Position numbers and translations under genes: made by a program. From Pseudomonadota bacterium (GTDB lineage: Bacteria > Pseudomonadota > Gammaproteobacteria > Steroidobacterales > Steroidobacteraceae), in contig JADJOO010000020.1 of the NCBI GenBank assembly GCA_016713725.1, forward strand, positions 4,192 to 68,191: a stretch of 64,000 nucleotides of DNA, given 5' to 3'. Numbering within the stretch: position 1 is the stretch's first letter; each line of letters begins with the position of its first letter. Below, one piece after another: positions 4,100 through 32,756 of this stretch. The notes beneath the pieces were generated by a model. The model worked only from the letters and a program-made list of their open reading frames with translations, did no database searches and was not told the origin of the DNA.

Positions 4100-5091
4100 G
4101 TGGTCGATACGATGCTGATGTTCGATATGCGCGCGCCGTCTTTCGGAGCGTCGCCGCGCGATCTCTATGCGGCAGCACCCGAGATGGCGGCCTATGCCGA
4201 CGAACACGGCATCGCCAGAATTTCCGCTTGCGAACATCACGGTGCAGACGACGGCTACATGCCCTGCAACCTGCTTTTTCTCGCCGCCCTTGCGACACGG
4301 ACAAAACGTGCCCGGCTCATGACGAATGCATTGATTCTGCCACTGCACGATCCGGTCAAGATGGCGGAGCAAATCGCGGTCACCGATCTACTAAGCGGTG
4401 GCCGCCTCGATGTCATTGTGGGCGGTGGGTACGTGCCATCGGAATTCGCCATGTTCGGCGTGTCCCTGGCAGATCGCGGCAGGTTGCTCGACGAAGGCCT
4501 GGAGGTGATGATCCGGGCACTTTCCGGCGAACGATTCGTGATGAACGGGCGGCCGATTTTCGTTCGTCCGCAGCCGTTACAGAAGCCGCATCCGCCGCTG
4601 CTTGTCGGGGGCGGCGTCAAGGCCAGCGCAATCCGCGCGGCACGCTTCGGCGCGGGCTTCTGCCCCTGAACGTAGATCTCTTTGAGGTCTACGATGCAGA
4701 GTGCAGGAAGTTGGGACGAGAACCTGGGCCGAAAATCGTTCTCGGTCAGGCGTGGTGCATTCATGTCGCGGAGGATCCGGACAAGGGCTGGGCCGAACTC
4801 ATGCCATACGCTGCCCACGTCGTGTCGTCTTATGCGCGTATGGCTGCAGAGGCGTCAAACTCTTCGTCGCCGTTTGACGAACTTGTGGGCGACGACGCCG
4901 TACGGAAATCAGGCTTGTTCCACGTTTTTACTCCCGATCAGTGTGTTGCCTATGCGCAGAAGTGCGGAGCGAGGGGGTACACAATGTCGGTTCAGCCGTT
5001 GATAGGTGGCCTTCCGCCTGAGATTGGCTGGCGGAGTCTGGAGCTCTTCTGCACGAAGGTTCTGCCCCGCGTCAACGTCCGCGCTGCGTGA
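4100..5091 (+). pseudogene. LLM-class (luciferase-like) flavin/F420-dependent oxidoreductase, one frameshift near 4660
   Basis: The N-terminal part (ORF 4058-4669) and C-terminal part (frame of ORF 4228-5091) join as ...AARFGAGF/PLNVDLFEVYDAE.... GTG at 4100 follows GGGAGG at 4089-4094. Confidence 0.7.
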
Positions 5092-24393: not shown

Positions 24394-25842
24394 TCAGGCC
24401 TGCTGCCGGATCCGCGAATGCTTGTAGCCGTACAGGAAGTAGATGAGGAAGCCGAGTCCAGTCCAAAGCGCCAGCCGGATCCACGTGTCGTGCGGCAGGA
24501 AGAGCGTCATGGCGAGGCAGATTGCCACGCCGGCCACGCCGGTGAAGGTGGCGAACGGCACGCGGAACGGACGCGGCGTATCTGGCTGCGTGCGGCGCAG
24601 CACGACAACGCCGGCGCACACCGCGCTGAATGCCAGCAGGATACCGATCGAGATCAATTCGCCAAGCACGTCGAGTGGAAAGATGCCGGCAAAGAACGCA
24701 GCGACCAAGCCGGTGATGATCGTAGCAACGTGCGGCGTGCGGTACTTCGGATGCACCTTCTGCATCGACGGCGGCAGCAGGCCATCGCGCGACATTGCCA
24801 TGAAAATGCGCGGCTGGCCGAGCAGCGACATCAGGATCACGGAGGTGAGGCCGACGATCGCACCGATCTTGACCGGCAGGCCGAGCCACTTCAGCTCCGG
24901 ATGGGCGTCGAGCGCGACCGCGACCGGTGCGGCGACGTTGAGTTCCGTGTACGACACCATGCCGGTCATCACGGCAGACATAAGGACATAGAGCACCGTC
25001 GAGATGAGCAGTGCCGCGATGATGCCCCACGGTACGTCGCGCTGCGGATTGCGGGCTTCCTGCGCCGTCGTCGCGGCCTGGTCGAAGCCGATGTAGGCAA
25101 AGAAGATGATTGCGGCGCCCTGCATGATGCCACTGAAGCCGAATTGTCCGGAGGTGCCTGTATTGGCGGGAAGGTAGGGCTGCCAGAGGTCGGGTGTCAC
25201 GTATTTGATGCCGACCGCGATGAACAGGACGATGATCAGGATCTTGATGATCACCATCACGTTATTGACGCGGGTCGACTGCTTCACGCCGACGTAACAC
25301 ACCCAGGTGAGCAGCGCGACGATCAGCACGGCCGGCACGTTGACCAGGGCGCCCGTCCTCACCAGGTGATTTTCCGCGCCTTTGCCAAGCGGCGCATTGG
25401 TGAGCGCGTCGGGCAGGTGGAGGCCGAATTCGGCGAGCAGGTTGACGACGTAGCCCGACCATCCGACCGCGACGGCAGCGCCCGACATCACGTATTCCAG
25501 CGCGAGGTTCCAGCCGACGAACCAGGCGACACCCTCGCCGAGCGTCGCGTACGTATAGCTGTAGGCGCTGCCCGAGATCGGGATCATCGAGGCCAGCTCG
25601 GCATAGCAGAGCGCGGCCAGACCGCAGCCGATGGCGGCCACGAGGAAGGCGAGGGTGACGGCGGGGCCAGTGTGCTGGGCGGCCACGGTGCCCGTCAGGA
25701 CGAAAATGCCGCTGCCGATCATCGAGCCCAGGCCGACGGAGGTCAGCGCTCGGCGGTCCAGTACGCGATTCAGCTTGGGCCCGGATTCGATTTCGCGAGT
25801 CATCGCAGCCACCGATTTGCGGGCTGCCAGCTGTTTCAGCAC
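24394..25842 (-). CDS. APC-family amino acid permease
   Basis: 12-TM profile with SVGLGSMIGSGIFVLTG and AELASMIPISGSAYSY motifs. Confidence 0.9.
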   Translation of the reverse strand: MLKQLAARKSVAAMTREIESGPKLNRVLDRRALTSVGLGSMIGSGIFVLTGTVAAQHTGPAVTLAFLVAAIGCGLAALCYAELASMIPISGSAYSYTYATLGEGVAWFVGWNLALEYVMSGAAVAVGWSGYVVNLLAEFGLHLPDALTNAPLGKGAENHLVRTGALVNVPAVLIVALLTWVCYVGVKQSTRVNNVMVIIKILIIVLFIAVGIKYVTPDLWQPYLPANTGTSGQFGFSGIMQGAAIIFFAYIGFDQAATTAQEARNPQRDVPWGIIAALLISTVLYVLMSAVMTGMVSYTELNVAAPVAVALDAHPELKWLGLPVKIGAIVGLTSVILMSLLGQPRIFMAMSRDGLLPPSMQKVHPKYRTPHVATIITGLVAAFFAGIFPLDVLGELISIGILLAFSAVCAGVVVLRRTQPDTPRPFRVPFATFTGVAGVAICLAMTLFLPHDTWIRLALWTGLGFLIYFLYGYKHSRIRQQA

Positions 25843-25916: not shown

Positions 25917-27422
25917 ATGGAGGCAATGACGCCGAAGACGCCAGAAGCCAGCGCCTCGCCCGACTGGACCAGGCCACGTCCCATCGACACCACGTATTGG
26001 GTCGTGCCGGGCCGGTTCCTGGTGGGAGAACATCCGGGCTCGCGGTCACGCGCCCGGTCGATGGATCGGTTGCGCCGGTTCCTCGAGGCCGGCATCACCT
26101 GCTTCATCGACCTGACCGAGCCGGACGAAAGTTCCGCCTATGACCGGCATTTGCCGTTCGAAACATCGTCGGGACGGCGCATCGACTATCGGCGCCAGCC
26201 GATTCCGGATCACGGCGTACCGGCCGACCGCGCCACCATGGACCGTATCCTGGCGATGCTGGACGACGCCCTCTCAACCGGCCACGGCGTGTACCTGCAC
26301 TGCCGGGCCGGCATCGGCCGCAGCGCGACAGTCGCCGGCTGCTGGCTTGCCGAACGCAATCCGGGCGGGGGTGAGGCAGCGCTCACCGAGCTGGGCGACT
26401 ACTGGCGACAGTGCCGGCAATCGAGGTCATGGCCGCAGGTGCCGGAAACCAGCGAGCAGGAGGAATTCGTACGCAACTGGCAACCGTTGCGGCCAGGGGT
26501 GAAAGGCGTCGCAAAATCGTCGGGGCCGGCCAGGGGTCTTGCGCTGGAGCAGCGCGTGCGCGGGGGTTGGTTCGGGCTCGCGCTGGGCGATGCGCTCGGC
26601 GCAACGAGCGCAGCCGCGGCAACGAGGAACCTGCCGCTGGCATGGACACAGCACACGTCGCTCGCGCTCTGCCTCGCCGAAAGCCTGAACGCCCTCGGGC
26701 GCAGCGATGCGCGTGACCAGATCGAGCGCTACTGGCGTTGGTTCAAGGATGGACACCTGACGGCTACGGGTCAGCCCGGCGAAACCGGCGCGTCGCCCGA
26801 TGTCGCGAAAGCGCTGGCGACCTTCCGCTGGCGCGGCTTGCCGGTGGCCGGTTCGCACGATCCGAAGGACGCCGCCGCGACGAGCTTGCCGCGCGTCCTC
26901 GCTGCCGCGCTGTTTGCGGGTAACAATCCCGCAGGTGCCATCGCACTTGCTGCCGAGTGTTCGCGCACCACCCATCAGTCGCCCCTGGTCCTCGACACCT
27001 GTCGCGCCTACTCGGCGATGTTGCTTTGCGCACTGCGCGGGCAGCCGGCGCACGACTGGTTGCGGGCCGTTCCCGAACCCCTGCCCGGGTGCTGGACAGC
27101 CAAGCCGTTGCGCAAAGACGTTCAGGCTGCGGTTGCCACCGCGCCGCCTGCCGAAGGCGCCACGGCGACCGGTGGCACGATCGACGTGGTGCAGGCGCTC
27201 GCACTCGCGCGTCGTATCGCCGGCGACGCAAAAGATTTCGATGCCGCCATCGTTGCGACAAGACGCAACGCGGGCGACGAGGCAGCCCTGGTCGCAGGGC
27301 TCGTCGGCACGATGTTCGGCCTGCAGCACGGTATGGACGTGCTGCCCCCGGATGCAAGCTCGGCCGGCTCGCGGGCCGCACGCACCTCGAAGTTACGGTC
27401 GATCATTGCGTTGCGCGCCTGA
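25917..27422 (+). CDS. Fusion protein: dual-specificity/Cys-phosphatase domain plus ADP-ribosylglycohydrolase (ARH)-like domain
   Basis: HCRAGIGRS P-loop (CX5R) with upstream PIPDHG. The C-terminal ARH fold is marked by GLALGDALGA, SRTTHQSP and LVAGLVGTMFG. Confidence 0.75.
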   Translation: MEAMTPKTPEASASPDWTRPRPIDTTYWVVPGRFLVGEHPGSRSRARSMDRLRRFLEAGITCFIDLTEPDESSAYDRHLPFETSSGRRIDYRRQPIPDHGVPADRATMDRILAMLDDALSTGHGVYLHCRAGIGRSATVAGCWLAERNPGGGEAALTELGDYWRQCRQSRSWPQVPETSEQEEFVRNWQPLRPGVKGVAKSSGPARGLALEQRVRGGWFGLALGDALGATSAAAATRNLPLAWTQHTSLALCLAESLNALGRSDARDQIERYWRWFKDGHLTATGQPGETGASPDVAKALATFRWRGLPVAGSHDPKDAAATSLPRVLAAALFAGNNPAGAIALAAECSRTTHQSPLVLDTCRAYSAMLLCALRGQPAHDWLRAVPEPLPGCWTAKPLRKDVQAAVATAPPAEGATATGGTIDVVQALALARRIAGDAKDFDAAIVATRRNAGDEAALVAGLVGTMFGLQHGMDVLPPDASSAGSRAARTSKLRSIIALRA

Positions 27423-27444
27423 CGGCGACGGGCGGAGTGGCGAA

Positions 27445-28482
27445 GTGAAACCTCGTCGGCGCCGGTTGCGCGAACCTGCGTGGACGCGGCTCGACGATGA
27501 GGCGCTGCTCGACATGCGCCTCTGCGACCTGCGCCTGTCGCTTGCACGGTCGGGCCTCGACCAGCCGGTGCAACGCCTCTACGAGGAATTGCGGCTCAAG
27601 GGCATCCTCTTCCGTCCGCATGTCTGGCTGTCCGAAGAATGGTTCTCGCCGGACGGCGTTCCCGGGATCGCCGTGCCGTTCTTCCTGGCGCATCCGCGGC
27701 TGCAGCGCCTCGAACGGCGCTTCATGCGCGAGGTCGAGGGTGGCAACGACAAGTGGCTGATGCGCATCCTGCGCCACGAAACCGGGCATGCGATCGACAC
27801 TGCGTTCGGGCTGCGGCGGCGCAAGACCTGGCGCGACACGTTCGGCAAGGCCTCGCGCCGATATCCGTCGCGGTATTCCCCGCGGCCAGCCAGCCGCCGG
27901 TTCGTGCTGCACCTCGGCCACTGGTACGCGCAGAGTCATCCCACCGAAGATTTCGCCGAAACGTTCGCCGTCTGGCTGCCGCGCAGATCGCGCTGGCGCA
28001 GCCAGTACGCCGGCTGGCCCGCGCTGCGCAAGCTCGAATACGTCGACGCGACGATGCGCAACCTGCATGGCAAGCGCGCGGTGTGCCTGAACCGCGATGT
28101 CGTCGAGCCGCTGGCCGAGAATACCCGCACGCTGCGCGAACACTATCGGCGCAAACAGCGGCGTTACGAACTCAACACCGCGCGCACTTACGATCGTCGC
28201 CTGCTGCGCGTGTTCGGCACCGCAGAGGATCACCCGTCCGGGCCGCAGGCCAGCAGGTTCCTGCGCAAGGTGCAGCCGCAGGTCGAGCGGTTGATGATTC
28301 GTCGCGCGAGAATGCACCCGTACCTGGTCCAGCACGTCCTGAAAATAGCGACCCAGCGCGCACGCCGCATGAACCTGCGGCTCAGTCACAACCAGCGCGA
28401 CACCAAGCGTGCGGTGCTGGTGATGCTCGAGCGCATCATGCTTGAGATGTTGCTGCGGGACCGCGAGAACTACGCCCTATGA
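27445..28482 (+). CDS. Putative zinc metallopeptidase (HExxH), conserved partner of the downstream ATP-grasp gene
   Basis: LRHETGHAID motif and HPTEDFAETFAVW. GTG at 27445 lies 22 nt after the upstream stop. The stop overlaps the next start (ATGA). Confidence 0.7.
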   Translation: MKPRRRRLREPAWTRLDDEALLDMRLCDLRLSLARSGLDQPVQRLYEELRLKGILFRPHVWLSEEWFSPDGVPGIAVPFFLAHPRLQRLERRFMREVEGGNDKWLMRILRHETGHAIDTAFGLRRRKTWRDTFGKASRRYPSRYSPRPASRRFVLHLGHWYAQSHPTEDFAETFAVWLPRRSRWRSQYAGWPALRKLEYVDATMRNLHGKRAVCLNRDVVEPLAENTRTLREHYRRKQRRYELNTARTYDRRLLRVFGTAEDHPSGPQASRFLRKVQPQVERLMIRRARMHPYLVQHVLKIATQRARRMNLRLSHNQRDTKRAVLVMLERIMLEMLLRDRENYAL

Positions 28483-29510
28483 CCAAGAAACCCCTGCGCG
28501 TGCTCGTGCTCGTGCACGAAACGCTGGTGCCTCCCGAGTCCACCGACGGCTACTCTCCACAGGAGGTCGACGAGTGGCGCACCGAGTACGACGTGACCTC
28601 GTCGCTGAAGGCGATGGGGCACGAGGTGAGGGCGCTTGGCATGGGCGACAACCTGGCCGAACTGCGCTCCACGATCATGGAGTGGAAGCCCGACATCGCC
28701 TTCAACCTGCTCGAGGAATTCCAGGGCATCGTCACGTACGACCAGTACGTGGTGGCCTTTCTGGAGCTGATGCGGCTGCCGTACACCGGCTGCAACCCGC
28801 GCGGCATGATGATCTCGCGCGACAAGGTGCTGTCGAAGCAGATTCTCGCCTACCACCGCATTCCCACCGCGCGGTACGCGCTGCTGCCGCGCAAGCGCCG
28901 CTATGTCGAGCCGCGCAAACTCAAATTCCCGCTGTTCGTCAAGTCGGCCACCGAGGATGCCTCGCTCGGCATCTCGCAGGCCTCGATCGTCTACGACGGC
29001 CAGAAGCTGCGGGAGCGAGTCGAGTTCATCCACGAGCAGACGAATTCGGATGCTCTGGTCGAGGAGTACATCGAAGGCCGCGAACTCTACATCGGCGTGA
29101 TGGGCAACGAGAGGCTGACGACCCTGCCGGTGTGGGAACTCAATTTCGGCACGCTGCCCGACGTGATGTCGATCGCGACGCGCAAGGTGAAGTGGGACCG
29201 CAAGTACCAGGTGCGGCACGGCATCGGCACGGGTCCCGCCCTTGATTTGCCGCCCGGCCTGTCGCCGCGGCTCGCCACACTCGTGCGGCGCATCTATCGC
29301 GCGCTGTCACTCAGCGGGTATGCGCGAATCGACTTGCGCTTGAAGCCGGACGGCGGGGTGTACGTGCTCGAGGCAAATGCGAATCCCAACCTCGCCCAGA
29401 TCGAGGATTTCGCGACCTCGGCGCTCGCTTGCGGCATGGAATACGACGCCGTGCTGGAGCGGATCCTGCAGTACGGGCAGAACTACGACGCGGCATGGCG
29501 GCAGTCCTGA
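28479..29510 (+). CDS. ATP-grasp protein, D-alanine--D-alanine ligase family
   Basis: LRVLVLVHE...KPDIAFNLLEEF..., FPLFVKSATEDASLGI, EEYIEGRELYIGV, ARIDLRL...YVLEANANPNL. Confidence 0.85.
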   Translation: MTKKPLRVLVLVHETLVPPESTDGYSPQEVDEWRTEYDVTSSLKAMGHEVRALGMGDNLAELRSTIMEWKPDIAFNLLEEFQGIVTYDQYVVAFLELMRLPYTGCNPRGMMISRDKVLSKQILAYHRIPTARYALLPRKRRYVEPRKLKFPLFVKSATEDASLGISQASIVYDGQKLRERVEFIHEQTNSDALVEEYIEGRELYIGVMGNERLTTLPVWELNFGTLPDVMSIATRKVKWDRKYQVRHGIGTGPALDLPPGLSPRLATLVRRIYRALSLSGYARIDLRLKPDGGVYVLEANANPNLAQIEDFATSALACGMEYDAVLERILQYGQNYDAAWRQS

Positions 29511-29623
29511 CTACGCGCCGATGATCTGAGGCGTGCGAGTGGCGGCGGCGCCTTGTCGCGAGCGCGAGTGTGCCTCTTGGCCCAAGCTCAGGGACAGGCG
29601 CCTGATCGCACGCCTGGATCGGT

Positions 29624-30778: not shown

Positions 30779-31081
30779 ATGGACAATGGCTTGCGCTGCT
30801 GGAAATGCGGAGTGTCGCTCGCCGACTATTCGCTGCCGCTGCGGCGACTGGAGGAGTGCCGGGCATGCCATGCGGAACTGCACACCTGCCGCATGTGCGA
30901 GTTCTACGACACGGGCAAGGCCAAGCACTGCCGCGAGACCATCGCCGAAGAAGTGAAGGACAAGCAGGTGGCGAATTTCTGTGACTACTTCCGGCCGACT
31001 CCGTCGGCTTACCGACCCGAGGCCCTGAGCGCGGCCGACAAGGCCAAGGCCGAACTCAATGCGCTGTTCGGCCACAAGTAA
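30779..31081 (+). CDS. Small Cys-rich (zinc-ribbon-like) hypothetical protein
   Basis: CWKC...CRAC...CRMC...C..C pattern. It sits 17 nt upstream of the next gene. Confidence 0.55.
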   Translation: MDNGLRCWKCGVSLADYSLPLRRLEECRACHAELHTCRMCEFYDTGKAKHCRETIAEEVKDKQVANFCDYFRPTPSAYRPEALSAADKAKAELNALFGHK

Positions 31082-31097
31082 AGACCAGGAGACGACT

Positions 31098-32756
31098 GTG
31101 ACGGTGATCCGACGAGCGGTACTGACAGGAATCGCGGCCATAACGCTGCTGGCGGGCGCGGCAGCGGCTGGAGAATCGGCCGCCCGGAAGGCAGCGGAGG
31201 CAGCGCCTGCGATGACGGCAGTGCGACCAGAGATCTACGCGCCGGTGACGCTGGCCGTGGACCTGTCGTCCCTGAGCGCCAGTGAACGGCAGATGCTGGG
31301 TCTTTTCATCGAGGCCGGCGAAATCATGGACGAACTGTACTGGCGGCAGACGTACGGCGACCGCGATGCGCTGCTGAAAGGCATCGTCGATCCGCGCACC
31401 CGCGAATTCGTCGCGCTGAACTATGGCCCCTGGGACCGGTTGGCCGACAATGCACCGTTCGTGCCCGGTGTCGGTGCCAAGCCGGAAGGCGCGGAGTTCT
31501 ATCCGCACGACATGACCCGCGAGGAATTCGAGAAGGCGAACCTGCCGCTGTCGCGCAGCGAATACACGCTCCTGCGACGCGACGCCAAGGGCGCATTGCA
31601 GGTCGTGCCATACCACGTCGAGTACCGCGAGGCGCTCGAAAAGGCAGCGCTCAAGCTTGAGCAGGCGGCCGCGCTGGCAGAGGACCCCGGTCTGAAGCAG
31701 TACCTGTCGCTGCGTGCGCAGGCGCTGCGTACCGACGACTACCGCGCGAGCGATCGCGCGTGGCTCGACATGAAGTCGAACCGCATCGACCTGGTGATCG
31801 GCCCGATCGAAACCTACGAGGACGCGCTGTTCGGCTACAAGGCCGCCTACGAGGCCTACGCGCTGATCAAGGACATGGAGTGGAGCAAGCGCCTCGAACG
31901 CTATGCCGCCATGTTGCCGGCACTGCAGCGCGGCCTGCCGGTCCCGGACGCCTACAAGGCCGAGCAGCCAGGCACGGATTCCGACCTCAATGCGTACGAC
32001 GTCGTCTATTACGCGGGCCACAACAACGCCGCTTCGAAGACCATCGCCATCAACCTGCCGAACGACGAGCAGGTGCAGCTCGAGAAGGGCACGCGCCGGC
32101 TGCAGCTCAAGAACGCGATGCGCGCCAAGTTCGACAGGATCATGCTGCCGATCGCCGACGAGCTGATCGTGCCGGAGCAGCGCAAGCACGTGACGTTCGA
32201 AGCGTTCTTCGCCAATACCATGTTCCACGAGGTGGCGCACGGCTTAGGCGTAAAGAACACGCTCGACGGCAAGGGCACGGTTCGTGAAGCGCTGACGGAA
32301 CAGGCGAGCTGGCTCGAGGAAGGCAAGGCCGATATCCTCGGGCTGTACATGGTCACCAGACTGCACGAGAAGGGCGAACTCGGCGGGTCGCTCGAGGACT
32401 ACTATGTGACGTTCCTGACCGGCATCTTCCGTTCGGTGCGGTGGGGCGCCGCCGAAGCCCACGGCCAGGCGAACATGGTGCGCTTCAACTACTTCGCCGA
32501 TCGCGGCGCGTTCAGCCGCGATGCCAACGGCCACTACCGCGTCGACATGGCGAAGATGCGCAAGGCGATGGATGAACTGTCGGCCGACATTCTCAAGCTG
32601 CAGGGCGACGGCAACTACGCGGGCGTCAAGGAGCTGCTCGCCCGGATCGGCGTGCTGAAGCCCCAGTTGTCTGCCGACCTCGCGCGCCTCGGCGCCCGCA
32701 ACATTCCGGTCGACGTCCGCTTCGAGCAGGGCAAGGCCGTGCTGGGCCTGAAGTAG
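31098..32756 (+). CDS. Secreted DPP III (M49)-like zinc hydrolase
   Basis: GTG at 31098 after AGGAG; signal peptide; FHEVAHGLG (HExxH) and EEGKADILG second motif. Confidence 0.7.
   Translation: MTVIRRAVLTGIAAITLLAGAAAAGESAARKAAEAAPAMTAVRPEIYAPVTLAVDLSSLSASERQMLGLFIEAGEIMDELYWRQTYGDRDALLKGIVDPRTREFVALNYGPWDRLADNAPFVPGVGAKPEGAEFYPHDMTREEFEKANLPLSRSEYTLLRRDAKGALQVVPYHVEYREALEKAALKLEQAAALAEDPGLKQYLSLRAQALRTDDYRASDRAWLDMKSNRIDLVIGPIETYEDALFGYKAAYEAYALIKDMEWSKRLERYAAMLPALQRGLPVPDAYKAEQPGTDSDLNAYDVVYYAGHNNAASKTIAINLPNDEQVQLEKGTRRLQLKNAMRAKFDRIMLPIADELIVPEQRKHVTFEAFFANTMFHEVAHGLGVKNTLDGKGTVREALTEQASWLEEGKADILGLYMVTRLHEKGELGGSLEDYYVTFLTGIFRSVRWGAAEAHGQANMVRFNYFADRGAFSRDANGHYRVDMAKMRKAMDELSADILKLQGDGNYAGVKELLARIGVLKPQLSADLARLGARNIPVDVRFEQGKAVLGLK

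Follow-up and report, generated by a model that had tools for sequence, protein, structure and literature searches.

A linked HExxH peptidase and Ddl-fold ATP-grasp ligase from several bacterial phyla, predicted to act on an amide-linked substrate other than D-Ala-D-Ala

Gene organization of the locus

We analysed a 64,000-nucleotide (nt) stretch of a Steroidobacteraceae genome (the window; positions 4,192 to 68,191 of contig JADJOO010000020.1, assembly GCA_016713725.1) and focus here on three adjacent genes, g1, g2 and g3, which encode a phosphatase/ADP-ribosylhydrolase-like (ARH) fusion, a putative HExxH zinc peptidase and an ATP-grasp ligase related to D-alanine–D-alanine ligase (Ddl). Close protein relatives also carry the label Steroidobacteraceae. 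A preliminary description of the window, made from the letters alone, had reported three co-directional genes, the first two 22 nt apart and the last two sharing an ATGA overlap, and the open reading frame (ORF) listing and junction sequences bear out this layout (all coordinates are window positions):

25917 to 27422, + strand: g1, 501 amino acids (aa), starting at ATG
27445 to 28482, + strand: g2, 345 aa, starting at GTG with GGAG in front
28479 to 29510, + strand: g3, 343 aa, starting at ATG
28479 to 28482, + strand: ATGA stop/start overlap of g2 and g3, read from the junction sequence

The spacing between g1 and g2 is 22 nt (27423 to 27444) provided that g2 begins at the GTG, a start that we adopt because the orthologue alignments back it. 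The ATGA overlap implies translational coupling of g2 and g3. Overlaps of 4 nt at this junction are also suggested in many loci of other phyla (7002/6999 in L089, 4093/4090 in L109 and 7011/7008 in L126), with the first start codon of each ORF taken as its start.

Linkage and inheritance of the g2–g3 pair

Searches with g2 covered genomes of its own order and phylum, from which 17-kb regions were retrieved, and a species-representative genome collection was scanned with a g2 profile; at least 599 relatives were confirmed in the collection, and the best 80 are the database loci analysed here. In all 19 primary loci of the order and phylum samples, g3 lies directly 3′ of g2, on the same strand and in the same order. 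A 20th locus holds a g2 paralogue (35% identity) with a convergent ATP-grasp gene (38% identity). The same arrangement recurs in 74 of the 80 database loci; of the six that depart from it, four lie at contig ends. Such linkage of the two genes goes far beyond what chance would give, and the tight coupling of peptidase and ligase claimed in the preliminary description therefore stands: the genes are linked rather than scattered, and no orthologue of known function was found. The further statement that no substrate could be assigned also holds for this widely conserved pair.

The 80 loci span Gammaproteobacteria (mostly Steroidobacterales), Planctomycetota, Acidobacteriota, Nitrospirota, Gemmatimonadota and others, and the g2 family comprises 2015 clusters at 50% identity (E ≤ 1e-3). 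Prevalence is patchy, with the pair present in 33 of 151 genomes of the order, 4 of 301 in an even sample of the phylum and 36 of 151 Planctomycetota. Pairwise identities among g2 orthologues co-vary with those among their g3 partners (Pearson 0.79, 3916 pairs). The g2 tree requires 7 phylum changes against a minimum of 5, and inheritance has therefore been mostly vertical, with few transfers. Two relatives from the same genus (G431 and G438; loci L035, L036 and L039) have two copies of the pair: type A, which is accompanied by a permease gene and g1, and type B, which is bare. We conclude that the functional unit is probably the g2–g3 pair itself, a self-contained two-gene module inherited mostly vertically within phyla.

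The basic HExxH peptidase g2

The Pfam family that g2 matches is Peptidase_Mx (PF15887), with a score of 28.7 bits (cut-off 27) and with profile positions 83–164 of 236 alone matched; precomputed Pfam labels give its orthologues the same family. Sequence comparison of g2 or its profile with solved structures returned nothing significant; a profile search of the PDB gave weak matches to 4l7a and 9urd (E 0.4–0.5). Two motifs stand out in the alignments:

27775 to 27789, + strand: HETGH of g2 (aa 111–115), putative zinc-binding and catalytic motif, from orthologue alignments
27925 to 27969, + strand: YAQSHPTEDFAETFA (YAQSHPxEDFAETFA), a block of g2 that is near-invariant in a 46-sequence alignment and in at least 95% of 89 orthologues

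Within the 46-sequence alignment, R110, H111 and H115 never vary and E112 is near-invariant, E112 also being kept in at least 95% of the 89 orthologues. From the fold class and what is known of M34 peptidases, the third zinc ligand is probably E168 and the transition-state tyrosine probably Y161, which lies seven residues before E168; this Tyr-to-Glu spacing equals that of M34-type gluzincins. An AlphaFold2 model of g2 (predicted local distance difference test score (pLDDT) 92) consists of a catalytic core (aa ~1–190) and a helical C-terminal domain. Structural matches found by Foldseek are weak (probability 0.98, E ~0.1, template modelling (TM) score 0.24–0.26, ~155 core residues aligned) and comprise M34-type structures, PPEP-1, the Bacteroides Peptidase_Mx structure 4l7a and an MtfA-like hydrolase, with no others among them; the helical domain (155 residues) matches no structure in this search. 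We read g2, which is without a signal peptide, as a predicted cytoplasmic HExxH gluzincin, a probable distant relative of Peptidase_Mx with a core that may resemble those of lethal factor, PPEP-1 and MtfA.

The protein is extremely basic, with a net charge of +35 and an isoelectric point (pI) of 11.3. Family members range from about +19 to +35, with median pI values of 9.7–10.5. The positive charge is compositional rather than positional and extends over both domains (family median net charge +11 and +14), and Lys-rich members from low-GC genomes are alike in this respect. As g3 is near neutral, the family-wide charge of g2 suggests docking on an anionic partner. Among longer metagenomic members, the extra N termini proved to be low-complexity or spurious, with the exception of P0127, a homologue that has a 120-residue N-terminal extension made almost solely of Lys, Arg, Thr, Ser and Pro.

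The Ddl-fold ligase g3

In Pfam, g3 matches Dala_Dala_lig_C (PF07478; 1.6e-27, 96.8 bits against a cut-off of 24). All 25 listed of its 39 NCBIfam matches are far under their cut-offs, including those to Ddl/Van models (130.8 bits against 243 for NF002378 and 116.4 against 245.65 for TIGR01205). A match to RimK (PF08443) is partial (aa 114–201, 28.7 bits); RimK is not the best match and the listed structural neighbours are all of the Ddl/VanA type, so g3 is not RimK-type. Solved structures found by sequence search with g3 are Ddl and VanA-type ligases only (E 1e-22 or weaker). The AlphaFold2 model (pLDDT 90, from a 33-sequence alignment) gave 50 listed Foldseek matches, all to Ddl or VanA-type (D-Ala-D-Lac) ligases, with TM scores of 0.68–0.77 (~0.75) and identities of 19–25%. 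The modelled structure is accordingly that of a three-domain ATP-grasp ligase of Ddl fold.

We mapped residues by profile alignment (hhalign) to Escherichia coli DdlB, with column counts over 89 orthologues. The DdlB numbering was checked by counting for E15 alone, and the aligned motifs agree with a HMMER alignment to Yersinia pestis Ddl. Two segments of g3 are of particular relevance:

29400 to 29414, + strand: IEDFA of g3, in which E309-D310 replace DdlB S281-L282 (the D-Ala2 carboxylate site), from alignments and column counts
28782 to 28799, + strand: YTGCNP, a family-specific invariant of g3, with C105 and N106 in 89 of 89 orthologues

The equivalents of the catalytic DdlB residues K97, K144, E180, E187, R255, D257, E270 and N272 are kept in 89/89 orthologues. 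The positions that hold D-alanine have changed: the equivalent of E15 is variable (K, Q, A or E), that of S150 is A or G in 88/89, that of S281 is E in 86/89 and that of L282 is D in 87/89. The family has acquired invariants of its own (C105, N106, K238 and N302, with W239, Y243 and Q244 near-invariant). Its lid is expanded and conserved (IATxK238VKW239DxxY243Q244), and its loop after β-1 is longer. Identity across phyla is 47–99%. Because the catalytic set is kept while the D-Ala positions are changed, we predict that g3 is a competent ligase that forms an acyl-phosphate and no longer binds D-alanine in the manner of Ddl. Two acidic residues at the site at which Ddl holds the acceptor carboxylate point to a positively charged acceptor; the sequence thus suggests that the acceptor is not D-Ala and is probably a cationic amine.

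A housekeeping ddl lies elsewhere in the genome (G000:C7:99346-100240), where it matches TIGR01205 at 236 and 80 bits in two adjacent frames, a split caused by a frameshift or an assembly or sequencing error in an essential gene. As this separate copy matches TIGR01205 far better, g3 is not the housekeeping ddl of the genome. Public records name orthologues of the pair ‘putative zinc-binding metallopeptidase’, ‘hypothetical protein’, ‘Ddl-like protein’ or ‘D-alanine--D-alanine ligase’. The last of these labels is, judging from the substituted residues, probably wrong for g3 orthologues, and it could mislead the annotation of cell walls or vancomycin resistance.

The label would be in line with a rival reading, a cell-wall pair in which an alternative Ddl/Van-type ligase and a VanX-like dipeptidase remodel peptidoglycan precursors. 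The closest relatives of g3 in both fold and sequence are indeed of the Ddl/VanA type, and a glutamate racemase gene, assigned by eye, adjoins the pair in one locus (L139). However, the D-Ala1 and D-Ala2 residues are replaced in ~97–100% of the 89 orthologues, scores are under half of the Ddl/Van cut-offs, and a separate ddl is present in the genome. In addition, the partner, g2, is an HExxH zincin for which neither Pfam nor NCBIfam gives a VanX-type dipeptidase match, and no linked mur, fts or van genes occur in the loci examined. We consider a cell-wall role highly improbable.

The lineage-specific accessory gene g1

The N-terminal part of g1 (aa 27–184) matches DSP/PTP families of phosphatases (PF22785 at 5e-12, PF22784 and PF00782), and its C-terminal part (aa 216–478) matches ADP_ribosyl_GH (PF03747; 6.5e-32, 111.8 bits). 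Alignment of 28 real orthologues (a further candidate row, L110_-653, is a spurious ORF) defined three motifs:

26298 to 26324, + strand: HCRAGIGRS, the CX5R(S/T) phosphatase loop of g1 (aa 128–136), conserved in 28 orthologues
26643 to 26657, + strand: WTQHT of g1, where ARH enzymes have (S/T)DDT
27267 to 27290, + strand: AGDEAA of g1, in place of the second ARH acidic motif (GGxxD)

The phosphatase half is well preserved, with HC(R/H)(A/G)G(I/V)GR(S/T) and an upstream PIPDHG, a candidate general-acid loop, in 28/28 orthologues. In the ARH family the DD pair binds metal. The C-terminal domain of g1 has a strong fold match, but the di-metal acidic residues are absent in the clade of the window, where WTQHT and AGDEAA replace the acidic motifs and the ARH site is therefore degenerate. 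Distant Steroidobacteraceae orthologues retain W(S/T)DDT and GGxxD (L091, L095, L101, L048, L049, L051 and others). The preliminary description had credited the fusion with a phospho/ADP-ribose-handling activity; in this clade, the metal-binding residues of its ARH half are lost.

The earlier proposal of a three-gene system does not hold as a conserved arrangement, as g1 accompanies the pair in Steroidobacterales-type loci only (29/80 database loci), and none of the Planctomycetota, Acidobacteriota or Nitrospirota loci analysed contains it. On the tree it occurs in three subclades that alternate with subclades without it, and it evolves faster than the pair (54% versus 75–84% identity within the genus). 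This patchy distribution, faster evolution and split in motif conservation indicate that g1 is a long-standing yet dispensable accessory, with its phosphatase half under selection and its ARH half decaying here. A decaying phosphatase–ARH accessory gene beside a conserved pair is thus a local feature of the window.

A genuine three-component system, in which g1 acts on the substrate of the pair, for instance by removing a phosphate or an ADP-ribose-derived group before or after ligation, would account for the 22-nt gap and for the absence of a terminator between g1 and g2 (two terminator-like matches inside g1 are no more than in shuffled sequences). It would also fit the placement of g1 upstream of the pair in three separate subclades in which the genes further upstream differ (permease versus TtcA/M32), and the retention of CX5R in all 28 orthologues. 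Nevertheless, the absence of g1 from loci of other phyla, from several Steroidobacterales-type subclades and from the type-B pairs of the same genus, together with its faster evolution and degenerate ARH site, makes such a system distinctly unlikely.

Genomic neighbourhood

Clustering of ORFs over the 80 loci found no third gene common across phyla, nor did a third conserved family emerge when 98 flanking genes from 25 loci were scanned against Pfam (the most frequent, S9 and BD-FAE, account for 4/98 each). Small-peptide hydrolases are in loose excess among these 98 neighbours (S9 in 4 loci; M32, S15 and NlpC/P60 in 2 each; Asparaginase_2 in 1), and M32 lies near the pair in 21 Steroidobacterales-type loci. 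Transporters of solutes or amino acids also recur nearby, including an APC permease in the window, an MFS transporter in Pyrinomonadaceae and a dicarboxylate/amino-acid symporter in L138 (assigned by eye). The permease of the window lies outside the conserved pair:

24394 to 25842, − strand: APC-family amino-acid permease with an AA_permease_C domain (Pfam), divergent from g1

In close relatives the permease is syntenic with g1 (63–99% identity; L035–L037, L055–L059, L061–L063 and L067), and we take AA_permease_C to be a mark of cationic amino-acid transporters.

Such neighbours would suit a role in small-molecule metabolism, in which the ligase makes a dipeptide, a pseudopeptide or a conjugate of an amino acid and a polyamine, and the zincin turns over the product or supplies a building block from peptides. 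The Ddl fold with its conserved lid is consistent with this, as are the amino-acid and solute transporters and small-peptide hydrolases in the neighbourhoods of different lineages, together with an M49-like enzyme in the window. None of these neighbours is conserved across phyla, however, and no riboswitch, leader or other metabolite-sensing element was detected in the window between 20000 and 34000 (E ≤ 0.1) or beside the pair in 11 loci. Nor would a small cationic product account for the extreme positive charge of g2. We regard this role as possible, if somewhat doubtful.

The lack of a universally linked biosynthetic or transport gene would suit another reading, in which the pair writes and erases a modification on a macromolecule. 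The carboxylates of an acidic protein tail, or of some other polyanion-associated client, would receive basic amino acids or amines from the ligase, and g2 would dock on the ribosome, the nucleoid or an acidic protein and remove or trim the tag. This would explain the charge of g2, which is about +19 to +35 family-wide and covers both domains, and the K/R-only extension of P0127; the endopeptidase-type (M34-like) core of g2 and its extra helical domain are in keeping with it, and the 47–99% identity of g3 across phyla is in line with a universal client. On the other hand, g3 has the compact, lidded three-domain Ddl architecture that is typical of small-substrate ligases, and no candidate client gene is linked in the loci examined. 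The pair is also absent from most bacteria, including 14 control genomes, and any client would thus need to be dispensable or lineage-restricted. A writer and eraser of this kind seems rather unlikely. A broader version of the proposal, in which a Ddl-derived writer that attaches a basic amino acid or polyamine and a zincin eraser of +20 to +35 net charge reversibly modify an anionic macromolecule across phyla and are further coupled to a phospho/ADP-ribose enzyme in Steroidobacteraceae, is unlikely. If true, it would give bacteria an undescribed equivalent of RimK/RimB or of the tubulin tyrosination cycle that uses the scaffold of a cell-wall enzyme.

Several other candidates were set aside. 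A role in defence or conflict was dropped: g1, g2 and g3 match no PADLOC anti-phage model at E ≤ 0.01, and the tree follows phyla. Some 10 kb upstream of the locus is an F420 gene cluster, and cofD (TIGR01819) occurs in 38 of 151 genomes of the order, 13 of which are among the 33 pair-positive genomes (~8 expected); editing of the F420 tail was rejected because the same-genus relatives G431 and G438 carry the pair without cofD. Apparent domain fusions in G381, G594 and G560 are long open frames that arise as high-GC artefacts, and the genes are separate.

Further features were observed nearby. An M49-like (DPP III-like) peptidase is encoded 1.5 kb downstream, at 31059–32756 on the + strand. 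A long-range inverted repeat, GATCTGAGGCGTGCGA ... TCGCACGCCTGGATC, spans the intergenic region between the convergent g3 and dksA-like genes (29513–29620), and this region folds no more stably than shuffled sequence (z −0.49). In a metagenome-assembled genome from Nitrospirales (L118), the pair is followed directly by a CRISPR array of 38 repeats (RF01322; 8173–10842), and a cobalamin riboswitch (379–636) is placed 5 kb upstream of the pair; both look like local context only.

Proposed function of the pair

These sequence data are best explained if g2 and g3 make up a dedicated pair of enzymes that would act on one family of amide-linked substrates, other than D-Ala-D-Ala. The gene structure, the linkage, the fold classes, the conservation of catalytic residues and the loss of D-Ala residues are observed, and we hold the explanation as a whole to be probable, with a good deal of room for doubt. 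By the mechanism of its family, g3, which comes from the Ddl lineage, would use ATP to phosphorylate a carboxylate to an acyl-phosphate and then couple an amine to it. As the anchor for the α-ammonium group of the donor (E15/S150) is gone and the acceptor-carboxylate site (S281/L282) is now Glu-Asp, we infer that the acceptor is most likely positively charged, such as a basic amino acid, a polyamine, or a Lys or N-terminal amine, and is not D-Ala. The partner g2, as a zinc hydrolase of the HExxH...E type, may act in the cytoplasm on the same family of amide-linked substrates, with its positive charge presumably serving to dock it on an anionic partner. The direction of the functional relationship could take any of three forms: g2 might undo the bond that g3 forms, shorten a precursor for the ligase to extend, or break down a competing product. 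In Steroidobacterales-type genomes, g1 would be an addition upstream of the pair; here it is probably co-transcribed with the pair, with its ARH half degenerate.

Several points weigh against this explanation. Two of the 80 database loci are real exceptions in which g2 has no adjacent g3. In L070 the ligase has been lost, yet the same genome has a second complete pair (G604; L070 and L142, with a type-A locus that lacks the ligase and an intact type B), and in L133 an S9 peptidase stands in place of the ligase. More distant g2 paralogues also occur without a ligase (L140 and L141). In g3, HMMER and hhalign differ over the equivalents of K215 and Y216, and the mapping of the N-terminal domain and the ω-loop is uncertain; the case that Glu-Asp makes for a cationic acceptor draws on one structural homology. 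A basic peptidase and a cationic ligase substrate fit poorly with one simple small molecule. Finally, a co-translated ligase and hydrolase of the same bond would constitute a futile cycle that wastes ATP. The sequential (cut-then-join) and VanX-like readings therefore merit the same weight as writing and erasing. The logic of ligation and removal put forward in the preliminary description is plausible, but cutting before joining, or removal of a competitor as with VanX and VanA, would fit the pair just as well, and either would escape such a cycle.

About one in four of the Planctomycetota and Steroidobacterales genomes sampled carries the pair, which occurs in Acidobacteriota, Nitrospirota and Gemmatimonadota as well. 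Once found, the substrate would define a new reaction for the Ddl branch of ATP-grasp enzymes and might bring to light a new metabolite or protein modification in bacteria that abound in soil and water. The significance would be high if the substrate is a protein or other macromolecule.

Comparison with known systems

A literature search found no paper on the pair and no characterised orthologue; an earlier in silico mention is possible. Known systems nevertheless offer instructive parallels. Ddl and VanA-type ligases share with g3 the three-domain ATP-grasp fold (TM ~0.75) and all of the nucleotide, Mg and acyl-phosphate residues, and VanA/VanX provides a precedent for a ligase encoded beside a zinc hydrolase. 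In Van systems, the hydrolase removes the competing product rather than that of the ligase itself. In contrast to Ddl and Van enzymes, g3 is only 19–25% identical, is under every NCBIfam Ddl/Van cut-off and has replaced substrate residues, and relative to Ddl its loop after β-1 is longer and its lid expanded. Unlike VanA, it is partnered by an HExxH gluzincin that is not VanX-type, outside any cell-wall gene context.

For g2, the closest comparison is with Peptidase_Mx (PF15887; PDB 4l7a and 9urd; NCBIfam TIGR04549, ‘substrate import-associated zinc metallohydrolase lipoprotein’) and with M34 peptidases, PPEP-1 and MtfA, which also have HExxH followed ~50 residues later by a Glu helix (EDFAE in g2). 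The profile and fold matches of the catalytic core to this group are weak but specific. In contrast to this group, g2 has no lipoprotein signal, is predicted to be cytoplasmic, is highly basic, carries an extra 155-residue helical domain and is paired with an ATP-grasp gene.

A further parallel is offered by RimK/RimB (Pseudomonas rimABK, in which RimK acts on ribosomal protein S6) and TTL/vasohibin on tubulin, in which an ATP-grasp writer of C-terminal residues is matched by a peptidase eraser. In these systems, as in the pair, an ATP-grasp amide ligase is coupled genetically or functionally to a dedicated peptidase, and by the RimK/RimB analogy the basicity of g2 would be compatible with a client bound to the ribosome or to a polyanion. 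However, g3 belongs to the Ddl clade, and its partner is a zincin rather than a retropepsin-like or transglutaminase-like protease. Glutathionylspermidine (Gsp) synthetase/amidase and LysX–LysW–LysK likewise combine carboxylate–amine ligation by an ATP-grasp enzyme with later hydrolytic release. The Gsp acceptor is a cationic polyamine, and the acidic carrier LysW, to which enzymes bind through basic surfaces, may offer an analogy for the basicity of g2. Unlike those systems, the pair has no linked carrier or intermediate enzymes, and it shares no sequence or domain kinship with them beyond the ATP-grasp fold. The g2–g3 pair is thus an uncharacterised variant of the theme of paired ligase and hydrolase.

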